This document shows positions 2,424 to 51,302 of a stretch of 64,000 bases of DNA, piece by piece (positions within the stretch are counted from its first letter, which is position 1; every line of letters begins with the position of its first letter). The notes under the pieces were generated by a model. The model did no database searches. It was not told the origin of the DNA and saw only the letters and a list, made by a program, of their open reading frames with translations. The stretch lies in the NCBI RefSeq assembly GCF_056746865.1, contig NZ_CM163382.1. One strand, given 5' to 3'. A program made the translations under genes and the position numbers.

Positions 2424-5075
2424 TTAGCGACAGATTGCTGTCTGCTGGTTCAGTAAGGTACCAGGAGAAACTTCAGGAAGCTTGTACTCGACAATACAGT
2501 TTGAGTTTTTATCTTTGCCCCATGAAACCTGTAATTTCCCTGACTGTGGAAGTCCAGTCAGATAAACCTGACCGTTTTCCGCGACAATGCTGCCATTTTT
2601 ATTCTTTCCGTGAGTGACAATTGCACCGAATGGAACGCTCTTATTACCGTACTTCAACGTCATTAATACTTTCCCGCCGATTTGTGCATTAAATGTTGCT
2701 CTGGCAATAGCACCGTGAGTTGGGATGACAGTGACCACGGTTTCATCCAGTTCAACATTATCTGCAAGGGAATTCGCGTTAAGAGCGACACGATTTTCTC
2801 TATATTCTGTCGCAAATGGTAATATGGCATAGCCACGCCAGTCGGTATGAATACCGGTCTGGTTCTCTATTTTGACATTATCAGCGCCAGGAGCCTTAAC
2901 CAGAACCATTGTGTCGCCCAGCGGCTGTCCAAAGGTGATGCCATCAGCATGAGCAATAATGCCACCACTCATTCCGTAATAAATCTGGCTGCTGTCACCA
3001 CTCCGACTGTAACCGACATTCGTATTACCGTAAGCTCCACGATAATTAAGAGAACTGTAACCACTGGTGCCAGACGATGTATTACCCCCGTGGGTGTTAC
3101 CGACCTGAACACTATAATTCAGGTTATTATCCGGCAGCAGAGTGCCATAAACTCCCGATAGATTGGTCATGCCGCCTTTCAAATCGTTTGACATACTGTA
3201 ACTGGCGTTTGAATTACGAAATGCCGACTGACTGTCTGTACGCATCCAATGACTGAAGGGAACATTAAGCGTAAAAGCAAGTAAATGATCCCGATCGTTT
3301 TGCCATATATTATTGGAATAGCTGTAATTCAGCGAAGTCGTAATATCACCAAACGGCACATTTAATCCAAATGATATTTGCTGGTCGCTGCGTGACGTGT
3401 TCCAGTAACTTTGGCGACTGGCACTAAAAAATGTCGTACCGTAATTTCCAAGCTGCTGAGAGATGCTTATTTGTTCCTGACCACGCTTACTGTAGAACAG
3501 ATTAAAATAATCAATAAATTGTGTCTGCTCGTTGCTGTCTCCGGTAGGAGGCTTGACGGTGTAACCACTCATTCGACTGTAGGCACTGTCGGATAAGTTA
3601 TAAAAACCTTGCGTAGAATAGCGATATCCTGCGACCTGGATATTGGTTCCCGTCTGGTAGAAGGATTTGCTGTAGACGGATTTAATCGATTGCCCGCTGT
3701 GACGGGTGCCATCTGCAAGTGTCGTATTGGCCTGCGTGATATCGAAAGAAAAGGCACCAAAAAGTCCTAAATCTTTACCAATACCAAGGTTGAAGGCCTG
3801 ATAATCTTCTGCAATTTGCATTCCGCCATAAGGTGTCCAGTTTCCTTCCAGTCCATGCATCAAGCTACCTTGTATGAACTTGGGGGAGCTTTGCAGGTTA
3901 TTTCCACTACGATATTCCCCCATGGCAAGCGCATAACGCGTATATCCAGCACGTTGGAGAACCGGAACAGACGAATAAGGAACATATAATGTCTGAATAC
4001 TGCCGTCTGCCTCTTTTATGGTTACTTGCAGATCACCACCATTGGCCGCAGAGTTGATATCATCAATAGTAAAAGGGCCGGGTGGGACAGTAGTCTGATA
4101 AACATCGTATCCATTCTGTTTTACACTCACTTGTGCGGTGCCGCGGGCAATACCATGAATCACCGGAGCGAAACCATGTTGGCTATCGGGCAACATCGCT
4201 TCTGTTGAATTTATTTTGAGGCCACGAAAGTTCACACTATCAAAAATATCGCCATCGGTATAACTATCACCTACCGTTAAGCGTGAGCGTAAGGGAATAA
4301 TGTCACGTTCAGCCGACGTATTGATATGCTGCCATTTATTGCTGTCAGATGAATTGCTACTCCCACTGTTATAACTCCACGTTGAGTTATCGCGCAGTCG
4401 CCAACTACCAATGTTGATGCCACTCTGTAAATTCAAATATGCATAGTTGGATTTTCCTGCATTATGGTTACTACGATTATTAATAGAATTACCATTAAAA
4501 CTATAGTTTAGAAGCCCAGCATTTATTCCTTCTTCCCACAGATCAGGAGAAACATAGCCGCGAGCCATTCTGCCAACATAAATTTGCGGAACGGAGAGTG
4601 ACAGATGTTGCTGACCAACATCAAACTCAGTTGATGCGTCGGCCAAACGATCCTGAAGTGGTGTGCATGCGCTGTTGTCCGGCACATGTTTTTCTGCCGA
4701 ATGTTCTTTATTGTCTAATAACGCTGATTTTTTTATGCCAAGACTGACTAGAAGATCTGTACTCAGGCATGGGATGAGATCTGCGTTATTATCATCTGCA
4801 ATAAAAGTAATATCCCGACTAGTAATAAATTCGTCGTTCAAATAAATGTCGACCCGATATGTACCAGGTGGTGCCTCGCGTCCCTTAGTAAAGGCGGATA
4901 AATCGACAGATTCAGCAAGATCATTGCTTAAAAACCGTGGATTAAAATAATACTCTGCGTCAACGGGAAATACCGCAGTTGCTAAGCCAAGGGCAATGGT
5001 AAGCCGTGCAAAGCGAGGCAGTAGTAACACCTGATGCATACGATATGCCTTAAATGCGGCACGAAAGGCTGTCAT
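2424..5075 (-). CDS. ydeT: fimbrial outer-membrane usher (FimD/PapC family), apparently full length
   Basis: 883-aa ORF, Asn/Ser/Tyr/Gly-rich beta-barrel composition and usher length; follows chaperone gene; true start may be internal Met 13. Confidence 0.85.
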   Translation of the reverse strand: MTAFRAAFKAYRMHQVLLLPRFARLTIALGLATAVFPVDAEYYFNPRFLSNDLAESVDLSAFTKGREAPPGTYRVDIYLNDEFITSRDITFIADDNNADLIPCLSTDLLVSLGIKKSALLDNKEHSAEKHVPDNSACTPLQDRLADASTEFDVGQQHLSLSVPQIYVGRMARGYVSPDLWEEGINAGLLNYSFNGNSINNRSNHNAGKSNYAYLNLQSGINIGSWRLRDNSTWSYNSGSSNSSDSNKWQHINTSAERDIIPLRSRLTVGDSYTDGDIFDSVNFRGLKINSTEAMLPDSQHGFAPVIHGIARGTAQVSVKQNGYDVYQTTVPPGPFTIDDINSAANGGDLQVTIKEADGSIQTLYVPYSSVPVLQRAGYTRYALAMGEYRSGNNLQSSPKFIQGSLMHGLEGNWTPYGGMQIAEDYQAFNLGIGKDLGLFGAFSFDITQANTTLADGTRHSGQSIKSVYSKSFYQTGTNIQVAGYRYSTQGFYNLSDSAYSRMSGYTVKPPTGDSNEQTQFIDYFNLFYSKRGQEQISISQQLGNYGTTFFSASRQSYWNTSRSDQQISFGLNVPFGDITTSLNYSYSNNIWQNDRDHLLAFTLNVPFSHWMRTDSQSAFRNSNASYSMSNDLKGGMTNLSGVYGTLLPDNNLNYSVQVGNTHGGNTSSGTSGYSSLNYRGAYGNTNVGYSRSGDSSQIYYGMSGGIIAHADGITFGQPLGDTMVLVKAPGADNVKIENQTGIHTDWRGYAILPFATEYRENRVALNANSLADNVELDETVVTVIPTHGAIARATFNAQIGGKVLMTLKYGNKSVPFGAIVTHGKNKNGSIVAENGQVYLTGLPQSGKLQVSWGKDKNSNCIVEYKLPEVSPGTLLNQQTAICR

Positions 5076-5116
5076 TATTAATTCCGATTGAGTTTATTAT
5101 TAATTAGGTCACTGGC

Positions 5117-5836
5117 TTACTGCATGGTTGCCTTAATACGCGGAGTTAATGCACCGTAATCATTGATCGTCTGAAAACTGATATCCCCGGTTGCAGCATG
5201 CGGGATATCCACCGATACTTCACCTTTTGGCGGCACCATGGTGTTTGGGAGATTGCTATTTCCTGCTTTCATATTTGTTACGGTAATGAAGTAGGGCGTT
5301 GGATTAATAAGAGTGAGTTTGCTGCCGCTGCGACGAAACCGAAGCATTGCAGGCGCTTCTTCAGGTGCCATTGCCAGGTTCGTGGGGCGATAAAACATTT
5401 TTATGCGGCTAATAATTGCCAGCTGTAATGTATTCTCATTCTTCTGATCTTTTTCCATAGCAGGAATAGCTTTAACATTAACCCAGAACAGGCTTTCACG
5501 GTCGCCTGGTAACTGATGATTAGTGGCGTTGATTATCCGCAGCGTATTCTCTTTTTTACCTTGCATGGAAAAAAGCGGTGGCGTAATGACAAACTGGGTG
5601 TCTTTTTGGTCACCTGCATTTTCTATCCATGACTGAATGAGATAGACACTGGCAGGATCATTATTCGTGACAGGCAATAAAACCTGTTTCTGGTTTGCCG
5701 GATAAATTACCCGCGTCGCACCCAGTGCGACAGCTGCGTTGGCAATGGTGCTATGGCAAGCAAAGAGCAATAAAAGTAACACTGTCGCCATAAAGGAAAT
5801 AGAGTAGGGGGTACGCGTAGTTTGCATCTGATGCAT
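5117..5836 (-). CDS. periplasmic fimbrial chaperone (PapD/FimC family)
   Basis: 239-aa ORF with signal peptide and chaperone-like length between major subunit and usher; start probably internal (MATVLLLLLFAC…). Confidence 0.8.
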   Translation of the reverse strand: MHQMQTTRTPYSISFMATVLLLLLFACHSTIANAAVALGATRVIYPANQKQVLLPVTNNDPASVYLIQSWIENAGDQKDTQFVITPPLFSMQGKKENTLRIINATNHQLPGDRESLFWVNVKAIPAMEKDQKNENTLQLAIISRIKMFYRPTNLAMAPEEAPAMLRFRRSGSKLTLINPTPYFITVTNMKAGNSNLPNTMVPPKGEVSVDIPHAATGDISFQTINDYGALTPRIKATMQ

Positions 5837-6189
5837 TCTCCATGTGTTAAGAGGATAAGCGGGAAAACCGTTACATCAGACAATCAGTAAATATTGCTAA
5901 TACATTGGCGACTCGCCGGGTTTCCAGACTTAATGCGTTTGTAATAAATGTTGGTTCTCTTTTAATAGGAAAACCTTGCTACAAAGTAAATATTTTAAAT
6001 AACAGTAAGTTTAACTACTGTTGTTTATTGATCGTTTAGATATTATGTGATTTTTTCATACCGCTCCAAAACACAAACTATTCCTCATTAATAATGAGAT
6101 GAACATTGGTGAATTGCTCGGGTGTGCGTAGCCATGCCACACACACCCTGTTTCAATTTCAGATGACGTATAGCCACCTTAAGATTGAA

Positions 6190-6753
6190 TTATAGATATT
6201 GAACTTTGAAGGTCGCATCAGCGTTTGCAGTACCAGCTACTGACTGCCCGAGAGCAATATATCGAGCCTGGAACGGCAATATATTCGTGCCATCAATCAA
6301 GTCAGTTTTAGCACTAAAAGTGGCACCATCAAGTATTAATACCTCACCCGTACGGTCCAAAATTTGAATACCGACATTTTGGGCAGAGCCTGCCGCTGAA
6401 CTCTGCAGCGCTAACGTATCGTCATTACTGGTGACAGTAGTACCCAGGAATGCAACAGCTGCATTACTGGAAACATTGGTATCACAATCATTCAGCTTGA
6501 TATTGAAGCCAACGGCGGAGCTGAGGTCACCCGCTTTAGCCAGACGAGAAGAACGGACCTGACCCAGCTCAACCGTTTGGTTCATTGATTCTGAATCAAT
6601 CGCACAAGCGGCATTTACCACTTCACCTTTAAAATGAATAACACCGCCATTAACAGTGGTCGTTACTGATTCATCACCCTCGGCTGCGCTTACCGCAGCA
6701 GACGACATCGCCAACACAGAAACGACAATCATACCGACATGTTTGAGTTTCAT
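6190..6753 (-). CDS. major fimbrial subunit (FimA-like pilin)
   Basis: 187 aa from ATG at 6753 with GGAG RBS; signal peptide ending SAAVSA; C-terminus ATFKVQYL resembles type-1 pilin termini; first gene of the operon. Confidence 0.75.
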
Positions 6754-7186
6754 AATTCTCCAAAATTTATATTTAAGTAGCTTAATAAAGAAAGTTAACA
6801 ATCAAGTCATTCTGTTATTGCTTATAAAACAAGAATCATTCTTGATGGGATATTGCCCTGAGAATATAGTTTCCAGGGTTATTACATTTCACGAAGAACG
6901 ATAATATCTTTAAATTACAAGGACACCTAATCACAACAAGTTTATTGCAGCACTTGTTGTAGAGAGTATTTGCAAAGACATTTTATGTCGCTAAATAACA
7001 TTACGATTTCATTATGCATGTTATTTATAAACAGCGACTAAACAGAATATTATTGCGAACAAGGGAAGTGTCAGGAAAGGTCAAGAGTTACTAATGGTTT
7101 ATATGGCTAAAAATCATTAGCTATGGTTAATGTTTGCTTTCTGAAACTAACGCCAAATTGCTCTAACCAGATAAATGCAGGGTTTA

Positions 7187-7721: not shown

Positions 7722-7756
7722 CACAGTTATGAACTCAGTTTTGGTTCATAACTGTG
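7722..7756. repeat. perfect 13-bp inverted repeat CACAGTTATGAAC / GTTCATAACTGTG with 9-nt spacer
   Basis: Read directly from sequence; a related palindrome GTTCATGAAC-TGTT occurs at 7797-7810. Confidence 0.6.
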
Positions 7757-17227: not shown

Positions 17228-17302
17228 AAAAGGAGGATTTAAAAGTCGTTTGAAGTCGGCAATATTAAGCCGCATGCATCTTCGACATGCGGCTTATACG
17301 GT

Positions 17303-20300: not shown

Positions 20301-22723
20301 AAGGTACTGTCTTTCAGTTGGGCAACACCGGCGAATTCAGTCCCTGCTGCATGGGTAAAGCCAAACATTTTGTCGGAGGATGACAGCTGCACTCGCATCA
20401 AGCCATCGCCTTTGAGCGCATTGGTCAGCGTGTAATCTCCCGCACTGTTCGTTGATGCGAGAATGTCGAGCGTACCGGGGCTTGCAATGGTTACTTCACT
20501 CGAACCCATGCCAGTTACCCCATCTGCCGTATGTGACGCAATGGTCAGGAGGCCGCCATTGACCAACGTTTTACCGCTATAAGTATTCCCTGCATTGAAC
20601 ACCGTATGGCCTGCATCATGCATCACTTTTCCGTCTTTATCGTCACCCGTAATCAGCATATCGACCTGGTAGCCGGCATCACTGTTATTGGTATGATTAA
20701 AGACAAAAACGCCTTCGCCAAGACCAAACTCCACTTTCGTCGCATTGGTGATAAATCCGGCATCTGCCGCCGCCTCACCGTGAGCAGCACCAATGTTTAG
20801 CGTTCCTACAGCAGGCGCAAAAACACCTAAGTAAACTTCTCCACCTTCGACATTCAGCGTACCGTTATTCGTCAGGGTTAACGTACCTGTGCCAGTCGTC
20901 CCTACGTTCATATTGAATGTTTCAAGAAGAGAGTTCTGCCCATCCACCCGCACGTCGCCCTTACTTTTGTCATTGAGAGCTATTTGTGTATCACGCGCTT
21001 TAACTATACCTCCGGTGGTAATATTCAGTTCACCCGCGCCTAATACACCGACCTGTAGTAATTGGGCGTTAGTAGATGATGTCTTTAAATTCCAGAGACT
21101 ATCCGTTGAAATATTAACTATCCCCTTACCGGAGGCATTTCCTCCGATAAATCCATAGCCCGTTGAATTAAGAGTGGCACCATTACTGACATTTACGATG
21201 CCGCTACCAAAATTACCGACATTGATACCTACAGTATCGAACGATGATGTCGCATCCATCAGGTTCAGTGTGCCGATACCGCTTGCTTTATCGCCCAAAA
21301 AAGTAATATTTTGCGATACGAACTTACCGCCATCGCTGATATTGAGGTTTCCGACACCCGCAACACCAATGGTGGTATAGACATTCTTATTGACCTCCCA
21401 CATCCCCCCCGTGGTGATGCTGACATTCCCGACGCCGGTTTCTCCATAACCGAGTGAGCTTCCTCCGTTGCTGACAACAAGCCCCTCATTACTGATATTC
21501 ATTTCGCCGTGGCCGTCATAACCAAGATTAGTTCCGAGATTAGTGATAACGGAGTTCTTATCCTTAATAGTAATGTTGCCTGTGCCTGTTTCTTTCATCC
21601 CCGCAGTGATAATTCCCGAATCTACTTTTCCTTCACTCGAGACATTAAGTTCACCGTCGCCAGCATCACCGATATAGATATAGCGGAAAGCTTCGCCCGT
21701 TCCGAGGAAATTCCAATGCCCTTTATCGGTCACGTTGACGACACCGTGGGACCCGTCCTGAACGCCCACAAATGAATATTCTTTGTTATTAATCAGTCCA
21801 TTATTGGAAATATTGACTTTGCCATTACCGAAATATCCATTATAGAGTCTGCGTACCGTGATAACAGAGTCTTGATCCTGCACATTCAGGGTTCCGATAC
21901 CGGTGGCATTGCCACCGATAATCGTATTTTCAGCCGTAATCAGCCCCCCCTCGCGAATAGTCGCTTCCCCCGTGCCTTGATTGCCAATTTGAAATTCAAT
22001 TGAGGAATCATTATTTTTTATTAGCCACTCGCCACCCTTTTCAACGACAACCTTACCATTGCTGTTCGCCTGATATCCTACAATGGCGACGATTGAACTC
22101 GTGACGTAACCCTTATCCGTAATATTTAATGAGCCTGTACCGTAACTCCCTATTTCGAATAATTCGGTCGTCAGAACCGAGTACTCTCCCTCAACATTGA
22201 CCGTCCCGACGCCTCCTGTCGAAGAACCTATCCTTAAATATCCTCCGTCAACGTGACCCTTCTGTTTAATATTCAGCGTCCCCGTACCGGATTGACCCAC
22301 ATTTAAAGGCCTTGCATTATTTCCGCTATCATACAATCGCCAGGTGCCACCCAAAACATTAACGGTACCCTCCGAGTCCTCATTAGCGCCAATGACGCTG
22401 GTAGTAATAGTGGTTAAGGAAGCATTACCGCCAGCCAAAATATTAAGCACTCCAGTGCCATACCACCCAACCAGGTAGGCATCGTAAGCAATATCAGTAT
22501 TAATATTGGTAATCTGACCATTATCAACTTCCAGACTCGCACCACACGCTGAACCGCTTAGTGCCAGCAAAACACCCAGCGTCAATCTACTGAATTTCGT
22601 TGTCAGTCCAGAGGATTTACGCAAATTAACCGTTGATGTTTTACCTACCCTGCGAGTTAATTCCGAGCAGGCCTGAAATACCTGTAGGGTGCAATTCCAT
22701 ATCACGCGATAGATTCTATTCAT
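17303..22723 (-). CDS. yneO: AIDA-I-type autotransporter adhesin, full length (K-12 counterpart is the yneO/ydeK pseudogene)
   Basis: 1806-aa ORF; extended signal peptide MNRIYRVIWNCTLQVF…; long Gly/Asn/Thr-rich repeat passenger; C-terminal beta-barrel-like region ending …GMLGVKYSW. Confidence 0.85.
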   Translation of the reverse strand: MNRIYRVIWNCTLQVFQACSELTRRVGKTSTVNLRKSSGLTTKFSRLTLGVLLALSGSACGASLEVDNGQITNINTDIAYDAYLVGWYGTGVLNILAGGNASLTTITTSVIGANEDSEGTVNVLGGTWRLYDSGNNARPLNVGQSGTGTLNIKQKGHVDGGYLRIGSSTGGVGTVNVEGEYSVLTTELFEIGSYGTGSLNITDKGYVTSSIVAIVGYQANSNGKVVVEKGGEWLIKNNDSSIEFQIGNQGTGEATIREGGLITAENTIIGGNATGIGTLNVQDQDSVITVRRLYNGYFGNGKVNISNNGLINNKEYSFVGVQDGSHGVVNVTDKGHWNFLGTGEAFRYIYIGDAGDGELNVSSEGKVDSGIITAGMKETGTGNITIKDKNSVITNLGTNLGYDGHGEMNISNEGLVVSNGGSSLGYGETGVGNVSITTGGMWEVNKNVYTTIGVAGVGNLNISDGGKFVSQNITFLGDKASGIGTLNLMDATSSFDTVGINVGNFGSGIVNVSNGATLNSTGYGFIGGNASGKGIVNISTDSLWNLKTSSTNAQLLQVGVLGAGELNITTGGIVKARDTQIALNDKSKGDVRVDGQNSLLETFNMNVGTTGTGTLTLTNNGTLNVEGGEVYLGVFAPAVGTLNIGAAHGEAAADAGFITNATKVEFGLGEGVFVFNHTNNSDAGYQVDMLITGDDKDGKVMHDAGHTVFNAGNTYSGKTLVNGGLLTIASHTADGVTGMGSSEVTIASPGTLDILASTNSAGDYTLTNALKGDGLMRVQLSSSDKMFGFTHAAGTEFAGVAQLKDSTFALERDNTAALTHAMLQSDSENTTSVKVGEQSIGGLAMNGGTLTFDTDIPAATLAEGYISVDTLVVGAGDYTWKGRNYQVNGTGDVLIDVPKPWNDPMANNPLTTLNLLEHDDSHVGVQLVKAQTVIGSGGSLTLRDLQGDEVEADKTLHIAQNGIVVAEGDYGFRLTTAPGDGLYVNYELKALNIHGGQKLTLAEHGGAYGATADMSAKIGGEGDLAINTVRQVSLSNGQNDYQGATYVQMGTLRTDADGALGNTRELNISNAAIVDLNGSAQTVETFTGLMGSTVLFKEGSLTVNKGGISQGELTGGGNLNVTGGTLAIEGLNARYNALTSISPNAEVSLDNTQGLGRGNIANDGLLTLKNVTGELRNSISGKGIVSATARTDVELDGDNSRFVGQFNIDTGSALSVNEQKNLGDASVINNGLLTISTERSWAMTHSISGSGDVTKLGTGILTLNKDSAAYQGTTDIVGGEIAFGSDSAINMASQHINIHNSGVMSGNVTTAGDVNVMPGGTLRVAKTTVGGNLENGGTVQMNSEGGKPGNVLTVNGNYTGNNGLMTFNATLGGDNSPTDKMNVKGDTQGNTRVRVDNIGGVGAQTVNGIELIEVGGNSAGNFALTTGTVEAGAYVYTLAKGKGNDEKNWYLTSKWDGVTPADTPDPINNPPVVDPEGPSVYRPEAGSYISNIAAANSLFSHRLHDRLGEPQYTDSLHSQGSASSMWMRHVGGHERSRAGDGQLNTQANRYVLQLGGDLAQWSSNAQDRWHLGVMAGYANQHSNTQSNRVGYKSDGRISGYSAGIYATWYQNDANKTGAYVDSWALYNWFDNSVSSDNRSADDYDSRGVTASVEGGYTFEAGTFSGSEGTLNTWYVQPQVQITWMGVKDSDHIRKDGTRIETEGDGNVQTRLGVKTYLNSHHQRDNGKQREFQPYIEANWINNSKVYAVKMNGQTVSRDGARNLGEVRTGVEAKVNNNLSLWGNVGVQLGDKGYSDTQGMLGVKYSW

Positions 22724-23244
22724 ATAAACGCTCCATATACAAACAATACAGCCACGAAAGAGATGAGTCGTCAGACATTAAAAATGAAACTTATTAAATT
22801 GTCAGAGGTCTGTATTGAGTGTTGGTTGGAGGTGGGAAGGTGTCAATTTGGCTAATTTGCTAATACTTTCGAAGCGATAGATTAAAAATTGCATAGTTCT
22901 TATTTTATTTAAAAATGAACCATGAGTTATTGTTGCTTAATAAGAAAAATGTTTCTTTCAATAAGAAAATTACCATCATCATATTTAACAAAGAATAGCA
23001 CTAATTGCTAAAAAAAGAAGTTTATTAAACCCCTTTTTCATCCATTAATGCCTTTAGGAATATTCGATATAAAATAAGGGTTATGCTTAATGCTTTAAGA
23101 AAAATAGCAATTTCCCCTTGAATATATTACGGGCGATGGAACGATGAATCTGCAAGCTGGCATTTAACAAACCAGCTCTAAAAGAAGGGAAATAAGAATA
23201 CTCAAAAAACAGCCACGGTCATCATGATGTGGCTGTCAATGAAA

Positions 23245-37081: not shown

Positions 37082-37441
37082 TCATGGCTGATTCATCTGT
37101 ATAACCAACCAGTGATAGATTACCGCCACGATATAACGTTGTTGTTCCTCGCTTAACGAAACACCCTGCGGAATGTTATGCCACTTAGCCAGACAACCGC
37201 GACAACAGGTTGCAGTGGCGTGCTGAGCGATAAACACCGGATGCCCGCGCATGGGGGTTTGCTTACCGTCGTTAGCCGGTAATGCCGGAGCAAGACGTTT
37301 AGCGACAAAATCCGCCGCATGTTGTTCGATGACTGGCGCGCCTTTCTCCAGACAATACTGACGCTCTTTCACCCCCAAACGAAAGCGAGAGCGAAATTTT
37401 GAACGGAATAAACGCGCGAAGAGTGGATCGAGAGACTGCAT
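37082..37441 (-). CDS. yneG: YneG family protein (DUF4186-type, Cys-rich)
   Basis: 119-aa ORF immediately downstream of glsB. Confidence 0.75.
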   Translation of the reverse strand: MQSLDPLFARLFRSKFRSRFRLGVKERQYCLEKGAPVIEQHAADFVAKRLAPALPANDGKQTPMRGHPVFIAQHATATCCRGCLAKWHNIPQGVSLSEEQQRYIVAVIYHWLVIQMNQP

Positions 37442-38367
37442 TAATAAACCGAACGCCCTAACTGTTTCGTCAATTGTTCAAGGACGGCGATACCCGCGAG
37501 CGAGTTACCTGCATCATCCAGTTCCGGACTCCAGACTGCGATGGCCATTTCATGCGGAACAATCGCCACAATACCGCCACCAACGCCAGATTTCGCCGGT
37601 AGTCCCACCCGCCAGGCAAACTCCCCCGCGTTCTGGTACATACCACTGGTCGCCATCAGCGCATTAATTTGCCGCGCCTGCATTGGCGTCACCACAGGTT
37701 CATCAATATGAATAGCTTTCCCCTGATTAGCCAGAAAGACAAACGTCCGGGCCAGCTCTACACAGCTCATTTTCAGAGCGCAGTAATGAAAGTAGTTTTG
37801 CAGAACGGTTGTCACGTCATGATGGAAATTGCCAAACGACTTCATCAGCCAGGCGATAGCCGCATTTCGCGCGGAGTGTTCAAATTCGGAACGCGCTACC
37901 ACCGTATCGTAGGAAATATCAGACACACCGCTTAAGCCGCGCACGACTTCCAGCATACGTTGCCGAGGAGCGCTTAATCGCCCTTGCAACATATCGCAGA
38001 CCACCAGCGCACCGGCATTAATAAACGGATTACGCGGAATACCCTGCTCCATTTCCAGTTGCACTAAAGAATTGAACGGTGATCCAGACGGATCTTTGCC
38101 GACGCGTTGCCAGATTTCCTCTTCGGAGTAATGACGCATGGCGACAACGAGACTCAGCACTTTGGAAATAGACTGAATGGAAAAACGTTCTTGTGCGTCT
38201 CCGGCCTGAAAAAGCTGTCCGTCAACGGTACAGATAGCAATGCCCAATCGGGAACCGTCTACTGTAGCCAGCGCCGGAATATAATTCGCGACTTTACCCT
38301 GACCAATGAGCGGCCGTACTTGCCGCAAGATGTTTTCTAAAATTGCATTATCCATGGCGACTGCCAC
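37441..38367 (-). CDS. glsB: glutaminase 2
   Basis: 308-aa ORF with serine-dependent glutaminase pattern (…[12 protein letters not shown]…). Confidence 0.9.
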
Positions 38368-38430
38368 TTTCTACTCCTGGACCGCAGGTCTGAAAAGACC
38401 TGCGAGTATATCAGAGCTGAATATGTAGCG

Positions 38431-39819
38431 TCAGATCCGGTCTTTCCACACCGTCTGGATATTACAGAATTCGTGTAAGCCGAAATGGGAAAGCTCACGA
38501 CCAAAGCCACTCTTTTTCACGCCACCAAAGGCCACTCGCGCGTCGCTGGCACAATAACCATTGATAAACACCCCACCGCATTCCAGACGTGCCGCCATCT
38601 GTCTGGCCCGGGTTTCGTCGGTGGTGAAAATGGTCGCTGAAAGGCCGAACTCGCTATTATTAGCCAGTTCCAGTGCATGTTCTGCATCTTTCGCAATGGT
38701 GATTGCCGCAACGGGGCCAAACATTTCTTCCCGAAACGCGGTCATTTCTGGGGTAACATTCGCCAGAACCGTTGGCGGATAGTAGTTACCTGCCCCAGCC
38801 ATCTTTTCCCCGCCCAGTAACAAACGCGCACCCTGCGCCAGGGTTTTCTCCACCTGATGATGCAGCTCATCACGTAAATCAAAACGAGCCATTGGTCCGA
38901 GAGTGTTCTCTTCGTCACGTGGATCGCCCATTTTCAAGGCTGCCGCAGCTGCCACAAAACGTTCGGTAAATGCCGAAGCAATTCCCTCTTCGATGATAAA
39001 GCGTTTTGCCGCTGCACAAACCTGTCCGGTATTCTGATAACGTCCGGCTACCGCCGCTTTAACCGCCAGTTCCAGATCGGCATCGTTAAGCACAATAAAT
39101 GGATCCGAACCGCCCAGTTCCAGTACGCATTTTTTCAGTGCCGCTCCAGCCTGTGCGCCAATAGCCGCTCCCGCACGAACACTTCCGGTCACCGTGACAG
39201 CAGCAATGCGCGAGTCTTTAATCATCTGACTGACGCCGTCGTTGTCGGCATTCAGCCAGCCATATACGCCTTGTGGGATACCCGCATCTTTAAACACCTG
39301 GGCAATGAGCTGTGCACAGCCCATCACATTCGGCGCATGTTTAAGTAAGTAGCCGTTACCTGCAAGAATGATGGGAACCGCGCCACGCATCACCTGCCAT
39401 AATGGAAAATTCCACGGCATAATCGCCAGAATTGTCCCCAACGGTCGATACTCAATAACTGCCTGCTGATTTTCCACCAGCGTAGGTTCCGCCTTCAGCA
39501 TTGCCGGACCATGTTCTGCATACCAGTCACACAAATTCGCCGATTTCGCCACTTCAGCACGCGCCTGGTTGATCGGTTTGCCCATTTCACGGGTGATCAT
39601 TTGCGCCATTTCTTCGCTACGGGCGCGCAGAGCCTTACCGATATCACGCAGTTTTTCAGCACGATAATCTATATTTGTCTCGCGCCAGTCGCGAAAGCCT
39701 GCTGCCGCCAGCTGAAGTGCGTTTTCGATATCATCAGCGCCAGCCCACGGCAGCACAGAAAGTTGTTCACCGGTGGCAGGATTTATCGAAATTGCATGAG
39801 TTGCCGGAGTAATGGTCAT
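38431..39819 (-). CDS. sad: NAD-dependent succinate-semialdehyde dehydrogenase
   Basis: 462-aa ORF with aldehyde dehydrogenase motifs (…ELGGSDP… catalytic Cys region). Confidence 0.9.
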
Positions 39820-39919
39820 CGGGGTATCTCCTTTATGAGTTATGGTAAAAAGATACGCAGATTTACTCTTGCTTGAAAATGAATAATATTAAGCCACTTA
39901 TTCATGAATCGAGAATATT

Positions 39920-40795
39920 ATGGATCTGACCCAACTGGAGATGTTCAACGCGGTTGCCGAAGCTGGCAGCATTACCCAGGCTGCAGCAAAAGTGCATCGC
40001 GTGCCGTCGAATCTCACTACCCGTCTACGCCAGCTGGAAACAGAACTGGGGGTTGATCTGTTTATTCGCGAGAATCAGCGTTTACGTCTCTCGCCTGCCG
40101 GGCATAACTTTTTACGCTATAGCCAACAAATTCTCGCGTTAGTGGATGAAGCGCGGAGCGTTGTCGCTGGCGATGAGCCGCAAGGTTTATTTTCTCTTGG
40201 TTCGCTGGAAAGCACCGCAGCGGTGCGCATTCCGGCCACGCTGGCGCAATTTAACCGTCGTTATCCCAAAATTCAGTTTTCACTTTCCACCGGCCCTTCC
40301 GGCACTATGCTGGAAGGTGTGCTGGAGGGAAAACTGAATGCAGCGTTTATTGATGGGCCCATTAACCATACTGCCATTGACGGGATACCGGTGTACCGCG
40401 AGGAGCTGATGATCGTCACGCCACAAGGACATGCGCCAGTAACCCGCGCCAGTCAGGTTAATGGCAGTAACATTTATGCCTTCCGCGCCAATTGTTCGTA
40501 TCGTCGCCACTTCGAGAGCTGGTTTCATGCTGACGGTGCCGCTCCGGGAACTATCCATGAGATGGAGTCTTATCACGGAATGTTGGCCTGTGTGGTCGCA
40601 GGAGCAGGTATTGCGCTTATTCCGCGCTCTATGCTGGAAAGTATGCCGGGGCATCACCAGGTTGAGGCGTGGCCGTTAGCTGAGCAATGGCGTTGGTTAA
40701 CAACCTGGCTGGTCTGGCGTCGCGGTGCGAAAACGCGTCCGCTTGAGGCATTTATTCAACTACTGGATGTGTCTGACTCGGCAAAACAGAGTTAG
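39920..40795 (+). CDS. yneJ: LysR-family transcriptional regulator divergent from sad
   Basis: 291-aa ORF with LysR HTH (…[31 protein letters not shown]…). Confidence 0.85.
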
Positions 40796-40878
40796 CAATG
40801 AGCTATTTTTGATAGTTCTTGCGGCTAATATGCTCTATATAGTGATGTTCCGATGACTTATGACTATATGGGGCAAAT

Positions 40879-41994
40879 ATGGTTACGCCAGTAAGCATCA
40901 GCAATTACATATCTCTTCCTGATGATTTTCCCGTACGTAATATTGCACCACAGGTAAAAGAAGTTTTAAAGGATTTCATTGATGCACTCAGTACAATAAT
41001 ATGTGATGAAGAGTGGCGTACGTCTTTAAACATCAACTCAGCCACAAAAAAGATATTTAATAACCTTGACAACTTATCATATATTCAGAGGACTTCTTTT
41101 CGGGGTAACGACACGCTATACAATGAAAAGGTTCAGTTTAAACTCACTTATCCCGTCAAGAATGGAAGACACAAAGAAAATATTGAATTTCAGGTAGTAA
41201 TAAATTTAAGCCCTATTTATTTAGATAATTTCCGCCATGATGGGGAAATTAATATTTTTTGCGCTCCCAACCCAAAGCCTGTCACTATGGGGCGCGTATT
41301 TCAGACCGGCGTCGAGCGTGTACTCTTTCTGTTCCTGAATGACTTTATAGAACAATTTCCAATAATCAACCCTGGCGTTCCTATCAAAAGAGCGCATACG
41401 CCACATATTGAACCCCTGCATCCGGATCACCATACCGCTGCAGATTACTTACGCCAGTTTGATTTGCTTGTCCTGAATTTTATCTCTCGCGGTAATTTTG
41501 TCATACTCCCCCGATTATGGAATAACTCTGAGGTTCACAGATGGTTCGGGAATAAAGAACCTAACTTGCTCACCGCTATTCTCGACATAACGGACAGCGA
41601 ATTAAAAGAGGATTTATTGCAAAGTCTGATGGATTCACTAGGTTCTAACAAACATGTACTACCCGAAGTCTGCATCTGCTTTTTATCCCTTTTAGCAGAA
41701 CAAGATTTTCCACATTTTCAGGACTTGTTTTTATTTTTCGCCAATATGTTATTGCACTATCACCAATTTATGAATCCCAATGAAAGTGATTTGATTGACG
41801 TGTTGATGCCAGCATCATTAAGTGATGATAAAATTATCAAACATATGGCGCGCAAGACCCTCAAACTTTTTGTAAAAAATGAAACGCCGCCAAAAGTTAC
41901 TCATGAAGACCTGGTGAAAAACAGGCCTCGCTCCCCTGTCAGACCACCTATACCCGCAACCTCCAAAACGCCAGACCTCCCTGAACGTCATTAA
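40879..41994 (+). CDS. yneK: uncharacterized protein, AT-rich gene
   Basis: 371-aa ORF, no recognisable motifs, visibly lower GC than neighbours. Confidence 0.7.
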   Translation: MVTPVSISNYISLPDDFPVRNIAPQVKEVLKDFIDALSTIICDEEWRTSLNINSATKKIFNNLDNLSYIQRTSFRGNDTLYNEKVQFKLTYPVKNGRHKENIEFQVVINLSPIYLDNFRHDGEINIFCAPNPKPVTMGRVFQTGVERVLFLFLNDFIEQFPIINPGVPIKRAHTPHIEPLHPDHHTAADYLRQFDLLVLNFISRGNFVILPRLWNNSEVHRWFGNKEPNLLTAILDITDSELKEDLLQSLMDSLGSNKHVLPEVCICFLSLLAEQDFPHFQDLFLFFANMLLHYHQFMNPNESDLIDVLMPASLSDDKIIKHMARKTLKLFVKNETPPKVTHEDLVKNRPRSPVRPPIPATSKTPDLPERH

Positions 41995-42012
41995 ACCGTG
42001 ATGTGACCGACT

Positions 42013-42042
42013 CTCTGACGCGTGAACGAATCAGCGTCAGAG
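42013..42042. other. 9-bp perfect inverted repeat CTCTGACGC-N12-GCGTCAGAG downstream of yneK
   Basis: Read from sequence; hairpin without U tract. Confidence 0.5.
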
Positions 42043-42143
42043 AAACGGAAAACGCGATCCAGATCACAAATGCATTGTATTCACATCATTAACCGTTTTA
42101 AGATCATTTCATCACTTTTTCGCAACTCACCCGATAATCTGTT

Positions 42144-43334
42144 ATGACAACAAACACTGTTTCCCGCAAAGTGGCGTGGCTACGGGTCGTTACGCTGGCA
42201 GTCGCCGCCTTCATCTTCAACACCACCGAATTTGTCCCAGTTGGCCTGCTCTCTGACATTGCGCAAAGTTTTCACATGCAAACCGCTCAGGTCGGCATTA
42301 TGTTGACCATTTACGCATGGGTAGTAGCGCTAATGTCATTGCCTTTTATGTTAATGACCAGCCAGGTTGAACGGCGCAAATTACTGATCTGCCTGTTTGT
42401 GGTGTTTATTGCCAGCCACGTACTGTCGTTTTTGTCGTGGAGCTTTACCGTTCTAGTGATCAGTCGCATTGGTGTGGCTTTTGCACATGCGATTTTCTGG
42501 TCGATTACGGCGTCTCTGGCGATCCGTATGGCTCCGGCCGGAAAGCGAGCGCAGGCATTGAGTTTAATTGCCACCGGTACAGCACTGGCAATGGTATTAG
42601 GTTTACCTCTCGGGCGCATTGTGGGGCAGTATTTTGGCTGGCGAATGACCTTCTTCGCGATTGGTATCGGGGCGTTTATTACCCTTTTGTGCCTGATTAA
42701 GTTACTTCCCTTACTGCCCAGTGAGCATTCCGGTTCGCTGAAAAGCCTACCGCTATTATTCCGCCGCCCGGCATTGATGAGCATTTATTTGTTAACTGTG
42801 GTGGTTGTCACCGCCCATTACACGGCATACAGCTATATCGAGCCTTTTGTGCAAAACATTGCGGGATTCAGCGCCAACTTTGCCACGGCATTACTGTTAT
42901 TACTCGGTGGTGCGGGCATTATTGGCAGCGTGATTTTCGGTAAACTGGGTAATCAGTATGCGTCTGCGTTGGTAAGTACGGCGATTGCGCTGTTGCTGGT
43001 GTGCCTGGCACTGCTGCTACCTGCGGCGAACAGTGAAATACACCTCGGGGTGCTGAGTATTTTCTGGGGGATAGCGATGATGATCATCGGGCTTGGTATG
43101 CAGGTTAAAGTGCTGGCGCTGGCACCAGATGCTACCGACGTCGCGATGGCGCTATTCTCTGGGATATTTAATATTGGAATCGGCGCGGGTGCGTTGGTAG
43201 GTAATCAGGTCAGTCTGCACTGGTCAATGTCGATGATTGGTTATGTGGGCGCGGTGCCTGCTTTTGCCGCGTTAATATGGTCAATCATCATTTTCCGCCG
43301 CTGGCCAGTGACACTCGAAGAACAGACGCAATAG
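42144..43334 (+). CDS. ydeA: MFS sugar efflux transporter
   Basis: 396-aa 12-TM-like ORF. Confidence 0.85.
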
Positions 43335-43337
43335 TTG

Positions 43338-43360
43338 AAAGGCCCATTCGGGCCTTTTTT
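43338..43360 (+). terminator. Rho-independent terminator after ydeA
   Basis: GGCCC-attc-GGGCC stem followed by TTTTTT. Confidence 0.7.
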
Positions 43361-44024
43361 AGTGGTACGTTTTAATGATTTCCAGGATGCCGTTAATAAT
43401 AAACTGCACCCCCATACATACCAGCAGGAATCCCATCAGACGAGAGATCGCTTCAATGCCCCCCTTACCCACCAGCCGCATAATTGCGCCAGAGCTGCGT
43501 AGACTTCCCCACAAAATAACCGCCACCAGGAAAAAGATCAGCGGCGGCGCAACCATCAGTACCCAATCAGCAAAGGTTGAACTCTGACGCACTGTGGACG
43601 CCGAGCTAATAATCATCGCTATGGTTCCCGGACCGGCGGTACTTGGCATTGCCAGTGGTACAAAAGCAATATTGGCGCTGGGTTCATCTTCCAGCTCTTC
43701 CGACTTGCTTTTCGCTTCCGGTGAATCAATTGCTTTCTGTTGCGGAAAGAGCATTCGAAAACCGATAAACGCGACGATTAAGCCGCCTGCAATTCGCAGA
43801 CCGGGAATCGAAATGCCAAATGTATCCATCACCAGTTGCCCGGCGTAATACGCCACCATCATGATGGCAAAGACGTACACCGAGGCCATCAACGACTGAC
43901 GATTACGTTCGGCACTGTTCATGTTGCCTGCCAGGCCAAGAAATAACGCGACAGTTGTTAATGGGTTAGCTAACGGTAGTAACACCACCAGCCCCAGGCC
44001 AATTGCTTTAAATAAATCTAACAT
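43359..44024 (-). CDS. marC: MarC-family inner-membrane protein
   Basis: 221-aa hydrophobic ORF divergent from marRAB. Confidence 0.85.
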
Positions 44025-44136
44025 TGGTGGTTGTTATCCTGTGTATCTGGGTTATCAGCGAAAAGTATAAGGGGTAAACAACGATAAAGTGTCACTCTTT
44101 AGCTAGCCTTGCATCGCACTGACCAAAACTTGAACC

Positions 44137-44234
44137 GATTTAGCAAAACGTGGCATCGGTCAATTCATTCATTTGACTTATACTTGCCTGGGCAATATTA
44201 TCCCCTGCAACTAATTACTTGCCAGGGCAACTAA
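44137..44234 (+). promoter_or_regulatory. marO: marbox, -35/-10 and two MarR operator palindromes
   Basis: Marbox GATTTAGCAAAACGTGGCAT (44137-44156); -35 TTGACT 44173-44178; MarR site I TACTTGCCTGGGCAATATTA 44181-44200 overlapping -10 TATTAT; site II TACTTGCCAGGGCAACTAA 44216-44234. Confidence 0.85.
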
Positions 44235-44235
44235 T

Positions 44236-44670
44236 GTGAAAAGTACCAGCGATCTGTTCAATGAAATTATTCCATTGGGTCGCTTAATCCATATGGTTAA
44301 TCAGAAGAAAGATCGCCTGCTTAACGAGTATCTGTCTCCGCTGGATATTACCGCGGCACAGTTTAAGGTGCTCTGCTCTATCCGCTGCGCGGCGTGTATT
44401 ACTCCGGTTGAACTGAAAAAAGTGTTATCGGTCGACCTGGGGGCGCTGACCCGTATGCTGGATCGCCTGGTCTGTAAAGGCTGGGTGGAAAGGTTGCCGA
44501 ACCCGAATGACAAGCGCGGCGTACTGGTAAAACTTACCACCAGCGGCGCGGCAATATGTGAACAATGCCATCAATTAGTTGGCCAGGACCTGCACCAAGA
44601 ATTAACAAAAAACCTGACGGCGGACGAAGTGGCAACACTTGAGCATTTGCTTAAGAAAGTCCTGCCGTAA
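44236..44670 (+). CDS. marR: multiple-antibiotic-resistance repressor MarR (GTG start)
   Basis: 144-aa [23 protein letters not shown]…; carries Ser103 and His137. Confidence 0.9.
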
Positions 44671-45104: not shown

Positions 45105-45323
45105 ATGAAACCACTTTTATCCGCAATTGCAGCTGCGCTTATTCTCTTTTCCGCGCAGGGCGTTGCGGAACAAACCACGCAGCAGGTTGTTACTTCCTGT
45201 GCCAATGTCGTGGTTGTTCCCCCATCGCATGAACAACCACCGTTTGATTTAAATCACATGGGTACTGGCAGTGATAAGTCGGATGCGCTCGGCGTGCCCT
45301 ATTATAATCAACACGCTATGTAG
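45105..45323 (+). CDS. marB: periplasmic MarB
   Basis: 72-aa ORF with signal peptide. Confidence 0.85.
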   Translation: MKPLLSAIAAALILFSAQGVAEQTTQQVVTSCANVVVVPPSHEQPPFDLNHMGTGSDKSDALGVPYYNQHAM

Positions 45324-49220: not shown

Positions 49221-49260
49221 GGCCCCTTGTTACAGTTGTGTACAAGGGGCCTGATTTTTA
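49221..49260 (+). terminator. Rho-independent terminator downstream of mgtS
   Basis: 10-bp perfect stem GGCCCCTTGT / ACAAGGGGCC with 11-nt loop followed by TGATTTTTA. Confidence 0.75.
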
Positions 49261-49418: not shown

Positions 49419-50302
49419 CGGTTAATCACATTTTGTTCGTCAATAAACATACAGCGATTTCTTCCGGTTTGCTTACCCTCATACATTGCCCGGTCCGCTC
49501 TTCCAATGACCACATCCAGAGGTTCTTCAGGAAATGCGCGACTCACACCTGCAGTCACGGTAATGTTGATATGCCCTTCAGAATGTGTGATGGCATGGTT
49601 ATCGACTAACTGGCAAATTCTGATACCTGCACGACATGCTTCTTCATCATTAGCCGCTTTGACAATAATGATAAATTCTTCGCCACCGTAGCGATAAACC
49701 GTTTCGTAATCGCGCGTCCAACTGGCTAAGTAAGTTGCCAGGGTGCGTAATACTACATCGCCGATTAAATGCCCGTAGGTATCATTAACCAATTTAAATC
49801 GGTCAATATCCAACAACATTAAATAAAGATTCAGAGGCTCAGCGTTGCGTAACTGATGATCAAAGGATTCATCAAGAACCCGACGACCCGGCAATCCCGT
49901 CAAAACATCCATATTGCTACGGATCGTCAGCAAATAAATTTTGTAATCGGTTAATGCCGCAGTAAAAGAAAGCAACCCTTCCTGAAAGGCGTCGAAATGC
50001 GCGTCCTGCCAGTGATTTTCAACAATAGCCAACATTAATTCCCGACCACAGTTATGCATATGTTGATGGGCAGAATCCATTAGCCGAACGTAAGGTAATT
50101 CATCGTTATCGAGTGGTCCCAGATGATCAATCCACCGACCAAACTGGCACAGTCCATAAGAATGGTTATCCGTTATTTCTGGCTTACTGGCATCTCTCGC
50201 GACCACGCTGTGAAACATACTCACCAGCCACTGGTAGTGGGCATCGATAGCCTTATTGAGATTTAACAAGATGGCATCAATTTCCGTTGTCTTCTTGATC
50301 AT
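49412..50302 (-). CDS. dgcZ: zinc-sensing diguanylate cyclase (CZB + GGDEF)
   Basis: 296 aa from MIKKTTEIDAILLNLNKAIDAHYQWLV…; GGEEF motif (…RYGGEEFIIIV…). Confidence 0.9.
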   Translation of the reverse strand: MIKKTTEIDAILLNLNKAIDAHYQWLVSMFHSVVARDASKPEITDNHSYGLCQFGRWIDHLGPLDNDELPYVRLMDSAHQHMHNCGRELMLAIVENHWQDAHFDAFQEGLLSFTAALTDYKIYLLTIRSNMDVLTGLPGRRVLDESFDHQLRNAEPLNLYLMLLDIDRFKLVNDTYGHLIGDVVLRTLATYLASWTRDYETVYRYGGEEFIIIVKAANDEEACRAGIRICQLVDNHAITHSEGHINITVTAGVSRAFPEEPLDVVIGRADRAMYEGKQTGRNRCMFIDEQNVINRV

Positions 50303-50556
50303 TGCCACTCCTTTTTCACAGTTCCTTGTGCGCGCTATTCTAACGAGAGAAAAGCAAAATTACGTCAATATTTTCATAGAAATCCGAAGTTATGAGTCAT
50401 CTCTGAGATAACATTGTGATTTGAAACAAAATCAGCAGATAAAAAAGTGTTTAATTCTGTAAATTAAGCCTGCATTATCGCAATTAAAAGGATGACAAAT
50501 AGCATAAACCAATACCCTAATGGCCCAGTAGTTCAGGCCATCAGGCTCATTTATTT

Positions 50557-51272: not shown

Positions 51273-51302
51273 GGCTGGCCTGGCGATATCTCCAGGCCAG
51301 CC
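51273..51302. terminator. 11-bp perfect inverted repeat GGCTGGCCTGG-N8-CCAGGCCAGCC between gene remnant and dcp
   Basis: Read from sequence; 12 bp beyond dcp stop; U-richer on plus strand. Confidence 0.5.

Follow-up and report, generated by a model that had tools for sequence, protein, structure and literature searches.

The gene yneK occupies positions 40879 to 41994 on the plus strand of the window, which is the whole stretch of 64,000 nucleotides analysed here, and lies between ptrR (yneJ) and ydeA. Its reading frame opens with ATG and encodes 371 amino acids, the length given in the preliminary description of the locus. The surrounding region, 40700 to 42200, is 100% identical to E. coli strain 118UI and is matched by 5,418 of 5,426 complete genomes, with 4,233 genomes covering at least 80% of the query; on the strength of this identity, the source of the window is E. 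coli. The features of the locus are named ptrR (yneJ), yneK and ydeA in the matching genomes, the yneK label appearing in thousands of them, and the K-12 locus tag of the gene is b1527. The encoded protein matches the NCBIfam equivalog NF033404, 'putative protein YneK', from end to end (residues 1-371 against profile positions 1-371) with 814.8 bits and E = 8e-246, above the curated cut-off of 40 bits. yneK is an already catalogued orphan gene and does not represent a new kind of system.

The nucleotide composition of yneK sets it apart from its surroundings. The GC content of the gene is 39.8% (39.5% in third codon positions), against 54.1% in ptrR and 51.1% in ydeA, which bears out the visible drop relative to both flanking genes noted in the preliminary description. 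This is the lowest value among the 50 open reading frames of the window, whose mean is 49.4% (sd 3.4). A GC content this low is reached in only 1.2% of sliding windows of equal length, and the profile within the gene falls to 0.33-0.36. The codon adaptation index, calculated with the weights of Sharp & Li 1987, is likewise the minimum, at 0.199 among 47 open reading frames (mean 0.276, sd 0.049). Neither parity of GC content with the neighbours nor a domain match, either of which would have told against the preliminary description, was found.

YneK has a mass of 42.9 kDa and a pI of 6.2, contains no transmembrane segment (maximal 19-residue hydropathy 1.18), and is predicted to be soluble. The preliminary description recognised no motif in the protein, and a search of Pfam returns zero families at E <= 10. 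PADLOC gives no match, PHROGs gives insignificant matches only (E >= 0.04), and searches of PDB sequences with the single YneK sequence and with a profile yield nothing better than E >= 0.2. A word-indexed search of 5.8 billion proteins recovers 22 YneK clusters, all of them from Escherichia and Shigella (E. coli, Shigella and E. albertii), while an exhaustive phmmer search of 1.84 billion representatives recovers 47 matches, all of which are fragments or error-laden copies of Escherichia yneK. In these two collections the searches find relatives in Escherichia, Shigella included, and nowhere else. Translated searches (tblastn) find no homologue in phages, and in plasmids they find E. coli chromosomal yneK loci misfiled as plasmids and nothing else.

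Structure prediction, which had been suggested as a check along with remote-homology search, yields no informative match. AlphaFold2 models are poor, with a pLDDT of 48 for the full-length protein and 54 for residues 140-345; only residues from about 229 to 335 reach 64-83. The best Foldseek match of these low-confidence models in the PDB has an E value of 0.62. Sequence conservation is distributed unevenly along the protein and is concentrated in residues 141-210, residues 229-272 and the C-terminal tail. It peaks in the first of these blocks, which is 80-90% identical between E. coli and E. albertii, and the tail is proline-rich and contains the invariant pattern RPRSPV..P..P...KTP. We propose a two-part organisation, modelled as alpha/beta in the N-terminal region and as a helical bundle in the C-terminal one, with the conserved proline-rich tail behind it.

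Comparison of the junctions in 80 loci encoding PtrR orthologues delimits a lineage-specific insert of 1,258 bp, from 40788 to 42045 on the plus strand, which comprises the yneK upstream region, the coding sequence and a 3' hairpin. The insert is flanked by a direct repeat, with the left copy, CGGCAAAAC (40779-40787), located within the last ptrR codons and its right partner, CGGAAAAC, at 42046-42053. Both copies read CGACAAAACG in E. albertii, an exact 10/10 match, and the empty sites of Escherichia sp. MOD1-EC7003, Escherichia sp. E1V33 and E. whittamii contain one CGGCAAAAT. About 1,350-1,365 bp separate ptrR from ydeA in E. coli and in E. albertii. The distance is 109-322 bp, with yneK absent, in Salmonella, in Citrobacter and in four Escherichia species, namely the three just mentioned and one further species representative. 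The last ptrR codons were replaced by the insertion, and about 12 nt at the left junction differ from the empty sites. On the right side, homology to the outgroups restarts immediately 3' of the hairpin, which is the last element of the insert. Beyond it lies the ancestral ydeA upstream region (42054-42143, plus strand), a C-rich, G-poor sequence with a C/G ratio of about 2; the ydeA upstream region, approximately 95 nt long, is conserved across at least 12 enterobacterial genera with or without yneK.

Taken together, the low GC content, the absence from the outgroups and the 9-bp repeat that is single-copy in empty sites support the horizontal entry of yneK into Escherichia on the 1,258-bp insertion, the origin that the preliminary description had suggested on the basis of composition. 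The direct repeats are the scar of the insertion, left either by duplication of the target site or by a microhomology at which integration took place. We found no terminal inverted repeats joining the ends of the insert, no transposase (yneK is the sole sizeable open reading frame and carries no transposase domain), no second copy of the insert in any genome matched, and, on inspection, no integron attC-like core sites at the hairpin arms or the insert ends. A circular molecule integrating at a 9-bp microhomology would leave an identical scar.

Two further candidates for the history of the site were rejected. Birth of yneK de novo in place would call for a non-coding precursor, and the outgroups carry no such 1.2-kb sequence at the site; an extra 69 nt in Escherichia sp. 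MOD1-EC7003, considered as a remnant of yneK, align to it locally no better than shuffled sequences do.

The junctions are identical in E. coli and E. albertii, and the insertion was accordingly a single event. Synonymous divergence of yneK between the two species (dS 1.31) falls inside the range of the neighbouring genes (0.46-1.33), and the insert is therefore about the same age as the E. coli-E. albertii split. The shared junctions and the extent of divergence agree with the older acquisition envisaged in the preliminary description. By PtrR identity to E. coli, the yneK-less Escherichia species (94-97%) are nearer to E. coli than E. albertii is (92%), which requires either several losses of the insert or an early exchange between lineages.

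The upstream region of yneK, delimited on the plus strand at 40796-40878 by alignment of E. coli and E. albertii, contains two blocks that are identical in the two species, CAATGAGCTATTTTTGATAGTTC at 40796-40818 and TGCTCTATATAGTGATG at 40831-40847, and a weak ribosome-binding site, GGGG, at 40870-40873 upstream of the ATG. A scan of this region for the sigma-70 consensus detects no promoter. A TATAGT hexamer is present at 40838-40843 without a -35 element, a conserved block lies about 20-40 nt upstream of it, and the consensus scan also reports promoter-like sites within yneK on both strands. The published record for the gene is thin and includes in vitro binding of RNA polymerase near its start, with gSELEX peaks for the RpoS, RpoH and RpoN holoenzymes in or adjoining the upstream spacer (PMC5493296, PMC8743547). 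The promoter is accordingly given here as a putative assignment within 40796-40878.

Published RNA-seq data comparing the wild type with an hns stpA mutant (Srinivasan et al., PMC4288151, supplement 3, sheet 'hs-wt') show a strong response of yneK, with a logFC of -5.65 for b1527 (P = 1e-67), corresponding to an approximately 50-fold increase in the mutant. The upstream neighbour ptrR (b1526) responds with a logFC of -2.1 (P 4.5e-13), and the value for the downstream neighbour ydeA (b1528), +0.47, is not significant (P 0.06). Judging by these expression data, yneK is a xenogeneic gene silenced by H-NS/StpA under laboratory conditions; the H-NS ChIP supplements searched contain no yneK entry. 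Since ydeA is unchanged while yneK is derepressed, with no read-through from one to the other, the 149-bp spacer between the two genes stops or removes the yneK transcript.

The sole strong structure in this spacer is the hairpin, which starts 18 nt 3' of the yneK stop codon. It consists of a perfect 10-bp stem and a 12-nt loop at 42012-42043 on the plus strand, with the arms TCTCTGACGC (42012-42021) and GCGTCAGAGA (42034-42043), and six of the ten base pairs are G-C. The preliminary description had placed a perfect 9-bp stem without a U tract at 42013-42042: the hairpin and its missing U tract were described correctly, and the length of the stem was not. The stem can be extended further through CCG/CGG at 42007-42009 and 42046-42048. 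The predicted folding energy is -29.5 kcal/mol for 41985-42075 (z = -3.6 against shuffled sequences) and -23.7 kcal/mol for 42006-42050. The window contains seven perfect stems with a length of 10 bp or more and a loop of 3-20 nt, compared with 1.2 +/- 1.2 in first-order Markov simulations, and six of the seven are not followed by a T tract; for any one spacer of 150 bp, the probability of containing such a stem is about 0.003.

The hairpin is missing wherever yneK and the insert are missing, and where it is present its arms are conserved. The 9-bp core arms TCTCTGACG and CGTCAGAGA have the same sequence in every E. coli allele and in E. albertii, in contrast to the 14-nt spacer and the flanks, which have diverged. 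All 18 arm positions are identical in a comparison where neutral sites are only about 45% identical, and by our own estimate such persistence would be very unlikely without selection. The variants that do occur in the stem are one U-G pair, found in the deleted allele described below, and one shifted terminal pair; double compensatory changes number zero. The hairpin occupies a median of one place per genome across 4,301 genomes and matches once in the window, and a search of Rfam returns no match, which excludes REP/BIME and other repeated extragenic palindromes as its source.

The conservation of the arms could reflect a binding site at the DNA level. The inverted repeat would then be an operator composed of the half-sites TCTCTGACG and CGTCAGAGA at a 14-bp spacing and recognised by a dimeric regulator of yneK or ydeA. 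Invariant arms separated by a spacer that varies in sequence and keeps a constant length of 14 nt in all alleles are what a protein-binding palindrome would display, and a promoter-like site of ydeA follows the repeat at a distance of about 35 nt. Its position in the locus argues against either target: the repeat is part of the insert, and at least 12 genera conserve the ydeA regulatory region in its absence, so that ydeA does not depend on it, and with respect to yneK it lies downstream of the gene, away from the yneK promoter. Perfect arms of 10 bp are also long for an operator, and the T variant of the B2 type preserves pairing, as U-G, in the plus-strand RNA only. We regard an operator as unlikely, although it fares better than the other alternatives.

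The position of a stable, G+C-rich stem 18 nt past the stop codon, together with the lack of ydeA induction upon yneK derepression, would also suit an ordinary intrinsic, Rho-independent terminator of yneK. The sequence that follows the stem, AACGGAAAACGCGAT on the plus strand and GTCGGTCACATCACG on the minus strand, contains no T tract in either direction, none is found after the stem in any allele examined, and a terminator scan of 40600-42400 reports 0 sites. Since it has no U tract, the hairpin does not qualify as an intrinsic terminator, and we consider this function quite improbable.

With no intrinsic terminator in the spacer, termination of yneK is most likely Rho-dependent. Rho-dependent E. 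coli transcripts are known to end just past stable stem-loops devoid of a U tract, which protect them against PNPase and RNase II, with rut sites located just downstream (Dar & Sorek 2018, PMC6061677). In the yneK locus, the final 110 nt of the reading frame have a C/G ratio of 2.05, and the 100 nt downstream of the hairpin (42044-42143, with 25 C and 12 G) have one of 2.1. The C-rich stretch downstream coincides with the ancestral ydeA regulatory region and may owe its composition to that role only incidentally related to yneK. The Term-seq supplement of PMC7815308 contains no yneK 3' end, probably because the gene is silent, and the one rho-mutant data set consulted contains no entry for it. 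By analogy with the published stem-loops, the hairpin most likely serves as the 3'-end-protecting structure of a Rho-terminated yneK transcript.

The gene carried by the insert is not retained uniformly. One identical deletion junction occurs in 1,116 of the 5,426 complete E. coli genomes (21%), and the deletion spares the promoter, approximately 28 codons, the final few codons and the hairpin. Larger deletions in a few strains extend into ydeA, a stop at codon 86 interrupts yneK in the type strain of E. albertii, and Shigella sonnei contributes large clusters of truncated YneK proteins. About 19 genomes contain an intact divergent yneK, with 84% protein identity, between flanks that match the deleted type. 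yneK is thus dispensable and often lost.

The frequency of deleted, nonsense and truncated alleles invites the question of whether yneK has a function at all, or is a decaying remnant or a chance reading frame in AT-rich junk DNA. The gene is silent in the wild type, a knockout phenotype suggested by a transposon-screen match of yneK for CAST editing was not confirmed (PMC12757027), and selective constraint is 3-30 times weaker than in the neighbouring genes, where dN/dS ranges from 0.005 to 0.06. Against these observations, the ratio in yneK is 0.15 in three independent comparisons (E. coli with E. albertii and two others), and the frame of 371 codons has survived the separation of E. coli from E. 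albertii, at a synonymous divergence of 1.3, where an unconstrained AT-rich sequence would soon have gathered stop codons. The unevenness of the conserved blocks also resembles that of a folded protein. By its dN/dS value, yneK is a real coding gene under purifying selection with relaxed constraint, and we give a non-functional yneK no better standing than an intrinsic terminator.

Least probable of all, by a small step, is the proposition that a type III secretion system (ETT2, LEE or Mxi-Spa) exports YneK as a cryptic substrate or effector, like IcaR (YjgL) and IcaT (YfdF). Under it, expression of yneK might be driven from the conserved upstream element (40796-40818) by a bound activator of the AraC type, and the protein might act in host cells through its proline-rich C-terminal motif. 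The profile of yneK does match that of icaR, an AT-rich y-gene of K-12 absent from phylogroup B2 and present in E. albertii (PMC9241512), and the distribution of ETT2 is identical (PMC4700944, PMC9241512); if the proposition were true, the loss of yneK in phylogroup B2 would parallel the absence of ETT2 there. Ser, Ile and Pro abound in the N-terminus of YneK, MVTPVSISNYISLPD, which is uncharged before residue 15, the proline-rich tail is invariant, and the arrangement of a TATAGT hexamer that lacks a -35 element behind a conserved upstream block would suit an activated promoter. What weighs against it is that the MxiE box consensus GTATCGTTTTTTTANAG is absent from the window at up to 3 mismatches (the best hand alignment of this consensus to the yneK upstream block reaches 10/16), that the Pfam, PDB and phmmer searches reveal no similarity of YneK to any effector family, and that absence from B2 is the outcome of one deletion event and hence amounts to very few independent data points.

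The reading we prefer, and consider probable as a whole, is that yneK is a foreign and dispensable gene silenced by H-NS/StpA, with Rho-dependent termination and a protective 3' stem-loop. A single-gene insert of 1.26 kb landed upstream of the ydeA promoter, just where ptrR (yneJ) ends, and duplicated a 9-bp target. Being AT-rich, the insert is subject to H-NS/StpA silencing under laboratory conditions. When active, transcription of yneK would stop in the 149-bp spacer before reaching ydeA, with Rho acting through C-rich, G-poor RNA in the last part of the reading frame and just downstream. The stem-loop at 42012-42043 would then block 3'-to-5' exonucleases, and in this way define and stabilise the 3' end of the mRNA and insulate ydeA. 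Present or published data bear out the insertion of yneK, its composition, purifying selection, frequent loss and silencing, as well as a transcript that does not continue into ydeA and a hairpin that is conserved; Rho dependence, protection of the 3' end and any activity of the YneK protein itself are inferred.

yneK is an orphan gene of K-12 to which no function, domain or structural relative has been assigned. To this the present analysis adds the coding status of the gene, the exact borders of the insertion and its scar, its age, the silencing by H-NS/StpA, one widespread deletion, and a U-less hairpin that travels with the gene. These six points explain the appearance of yneK in pangenome association studies. 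One such study associates yneK and the nearby marB with adherence to bovine cells, an association left unexplained by its authors (PMC11540155); the deletion of yneK is clonal, and the gene is therefore probably a lineage marker there.

Among known systems, the insert resembles insertion sequences and transposons with a 9-bp target duplication in being flanked by a 9-bp repeat that is single-copy in empty sites, but differs from them in that terminal inverted repeats and a transposase are lacking and no genome contains the insert twice. The genes icaR (yjgL) and icaT (yfdF) are comparable low-GC orphan y-genes, at 35-36% against 40% in yneK; each represents a single chromosomal insertion, is found in most phylogroups but not B2, and is silent in K-12, and icaR also occurs in E. 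albertii (PMC9241512). Their functional MxiE box and demonstrated secretion by the Shigella apparatus (PMC9241512) distinguish them from yneK, which has no MxiE box and no sequence similarity to either gene. With xenogeneic genes under H-NS/StpA control, yneK shares a GC content about 10 points below that of the genome, a lineage-restricted distribution and the approximately 50-fold derepression (PMC4288151), although it is a lone gene of 1.26 kb rather than part of an island or prophage, and is associated with no integrase, IS element or tRNA target. The stem-loops described by Dar & Sorek (2018, PMC6061677) are likewise stable and free of a U tract; as in yneK, the stem-loop stands near the stop codon and adjoins a C-rich, G-poor sequence, and the next gene is not transcribed through, the suggested membership of yneK in this group following from anatomy alone. 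The results leave the current understanding of such genes unchanged: the behaviour of yneK fits known classes, as a silenced foreign gene with a U-less stem-loop at its 3' end.

Positions 37441-44670 of the window were compared with an intact E. coli haplotype of the B2 type (L088); within the species, the synonymous divergence between these two sequences reaches its peak in yneK itself (dS 0.585). From this peak the values fall in both directions, through ptrR (0.30), sad (0.18) and glsB (0.08) on one side, and through ydeA (0.21), marC (0.11) and marR (0.05) on the other. The shape of this gradient suggests either that two haplotypes have long existed side by side or that a segment with yneK at its centre was imported.

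The yneK copy of NBRC 107761, the type strain of E. albertii (L012, 5461-6576), is interrupted by an in-frame stop at codon 86, and the gene is intact in other E. albertii assemblies (L001-L003). Three rare predicted proteins retrieved with YneK (P0002, P0006 and P0007) carry LysR (PtrR) or MarR domains fused to YneK sequence, which indicates further structural variants around the locus. The ptrR-yneK-ydeA arrangement also occurs on a contig labelled 'MAG: Caldithrix sp.' (L007), with protein identities to E. coli of 96-99.7%; almost certainly, E. coli DNA has contaminated the bin.

Upstream of yneK, the block CAATGAGCTATTTTTGATAGTTC (40796-40818) is unchanged between E. coli and E. albertii and contains the motif CTAT-N5-ATAG. 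It lies approximately 20-40 nt upstream of a TATAGT hexamer (40838-40843), for which no -35 element is detectable. Together, the block and the hexamer look like an activator-dependent promoter. The approximately 95 nt preceding ydeA (42054-42143) are kept in 12 or more genera of enterobacteria. The blocks conserved in this stretch are AAA.G.GA, TCAC.AA-N4-TTGT, which forms a small palindrome, and TTTAAGATC; it has the look of a regulatory region of long standing, with a putative operator.

Besides the hairpin of yneK, the window holds six further perfect hairpins of 10-13 bp (6992-7027, 7722-7756, 17266-17296, 45210-45240, 49221-49251 and 51273-51302), each outside the listed ORFs. A T run follows only one of the six (49221-49251), and therefore U-less hairpins seem common in this region. 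Further tracts below 42% GC are found at 1-1350, 5000-6900, 21900-22770 and 49930-50350, and may represent additional foreign or H-NS-bound segments.

In Escherichia sp. MOD1-EC7003 (L008, ~5360-5430), the exact site of yneK in E. coli is occupied by a different 69-nt segment with a hairpin of its own; this segment cannot be recognised as a remnant of yneK. Among Enterobacter, Klebsiella, Kluyvera, Kosakonia and others (L040-L086), the ptrR-ydeA gap is filled by 1-3.4 kb of genes with normal GC, which by eye look PhzF-like, lactate/malate dehydrogenase-like and acetyltransferase-like. Since these genera carry other genes in the gap, the ptrR-ydeA junction is variable across the family.
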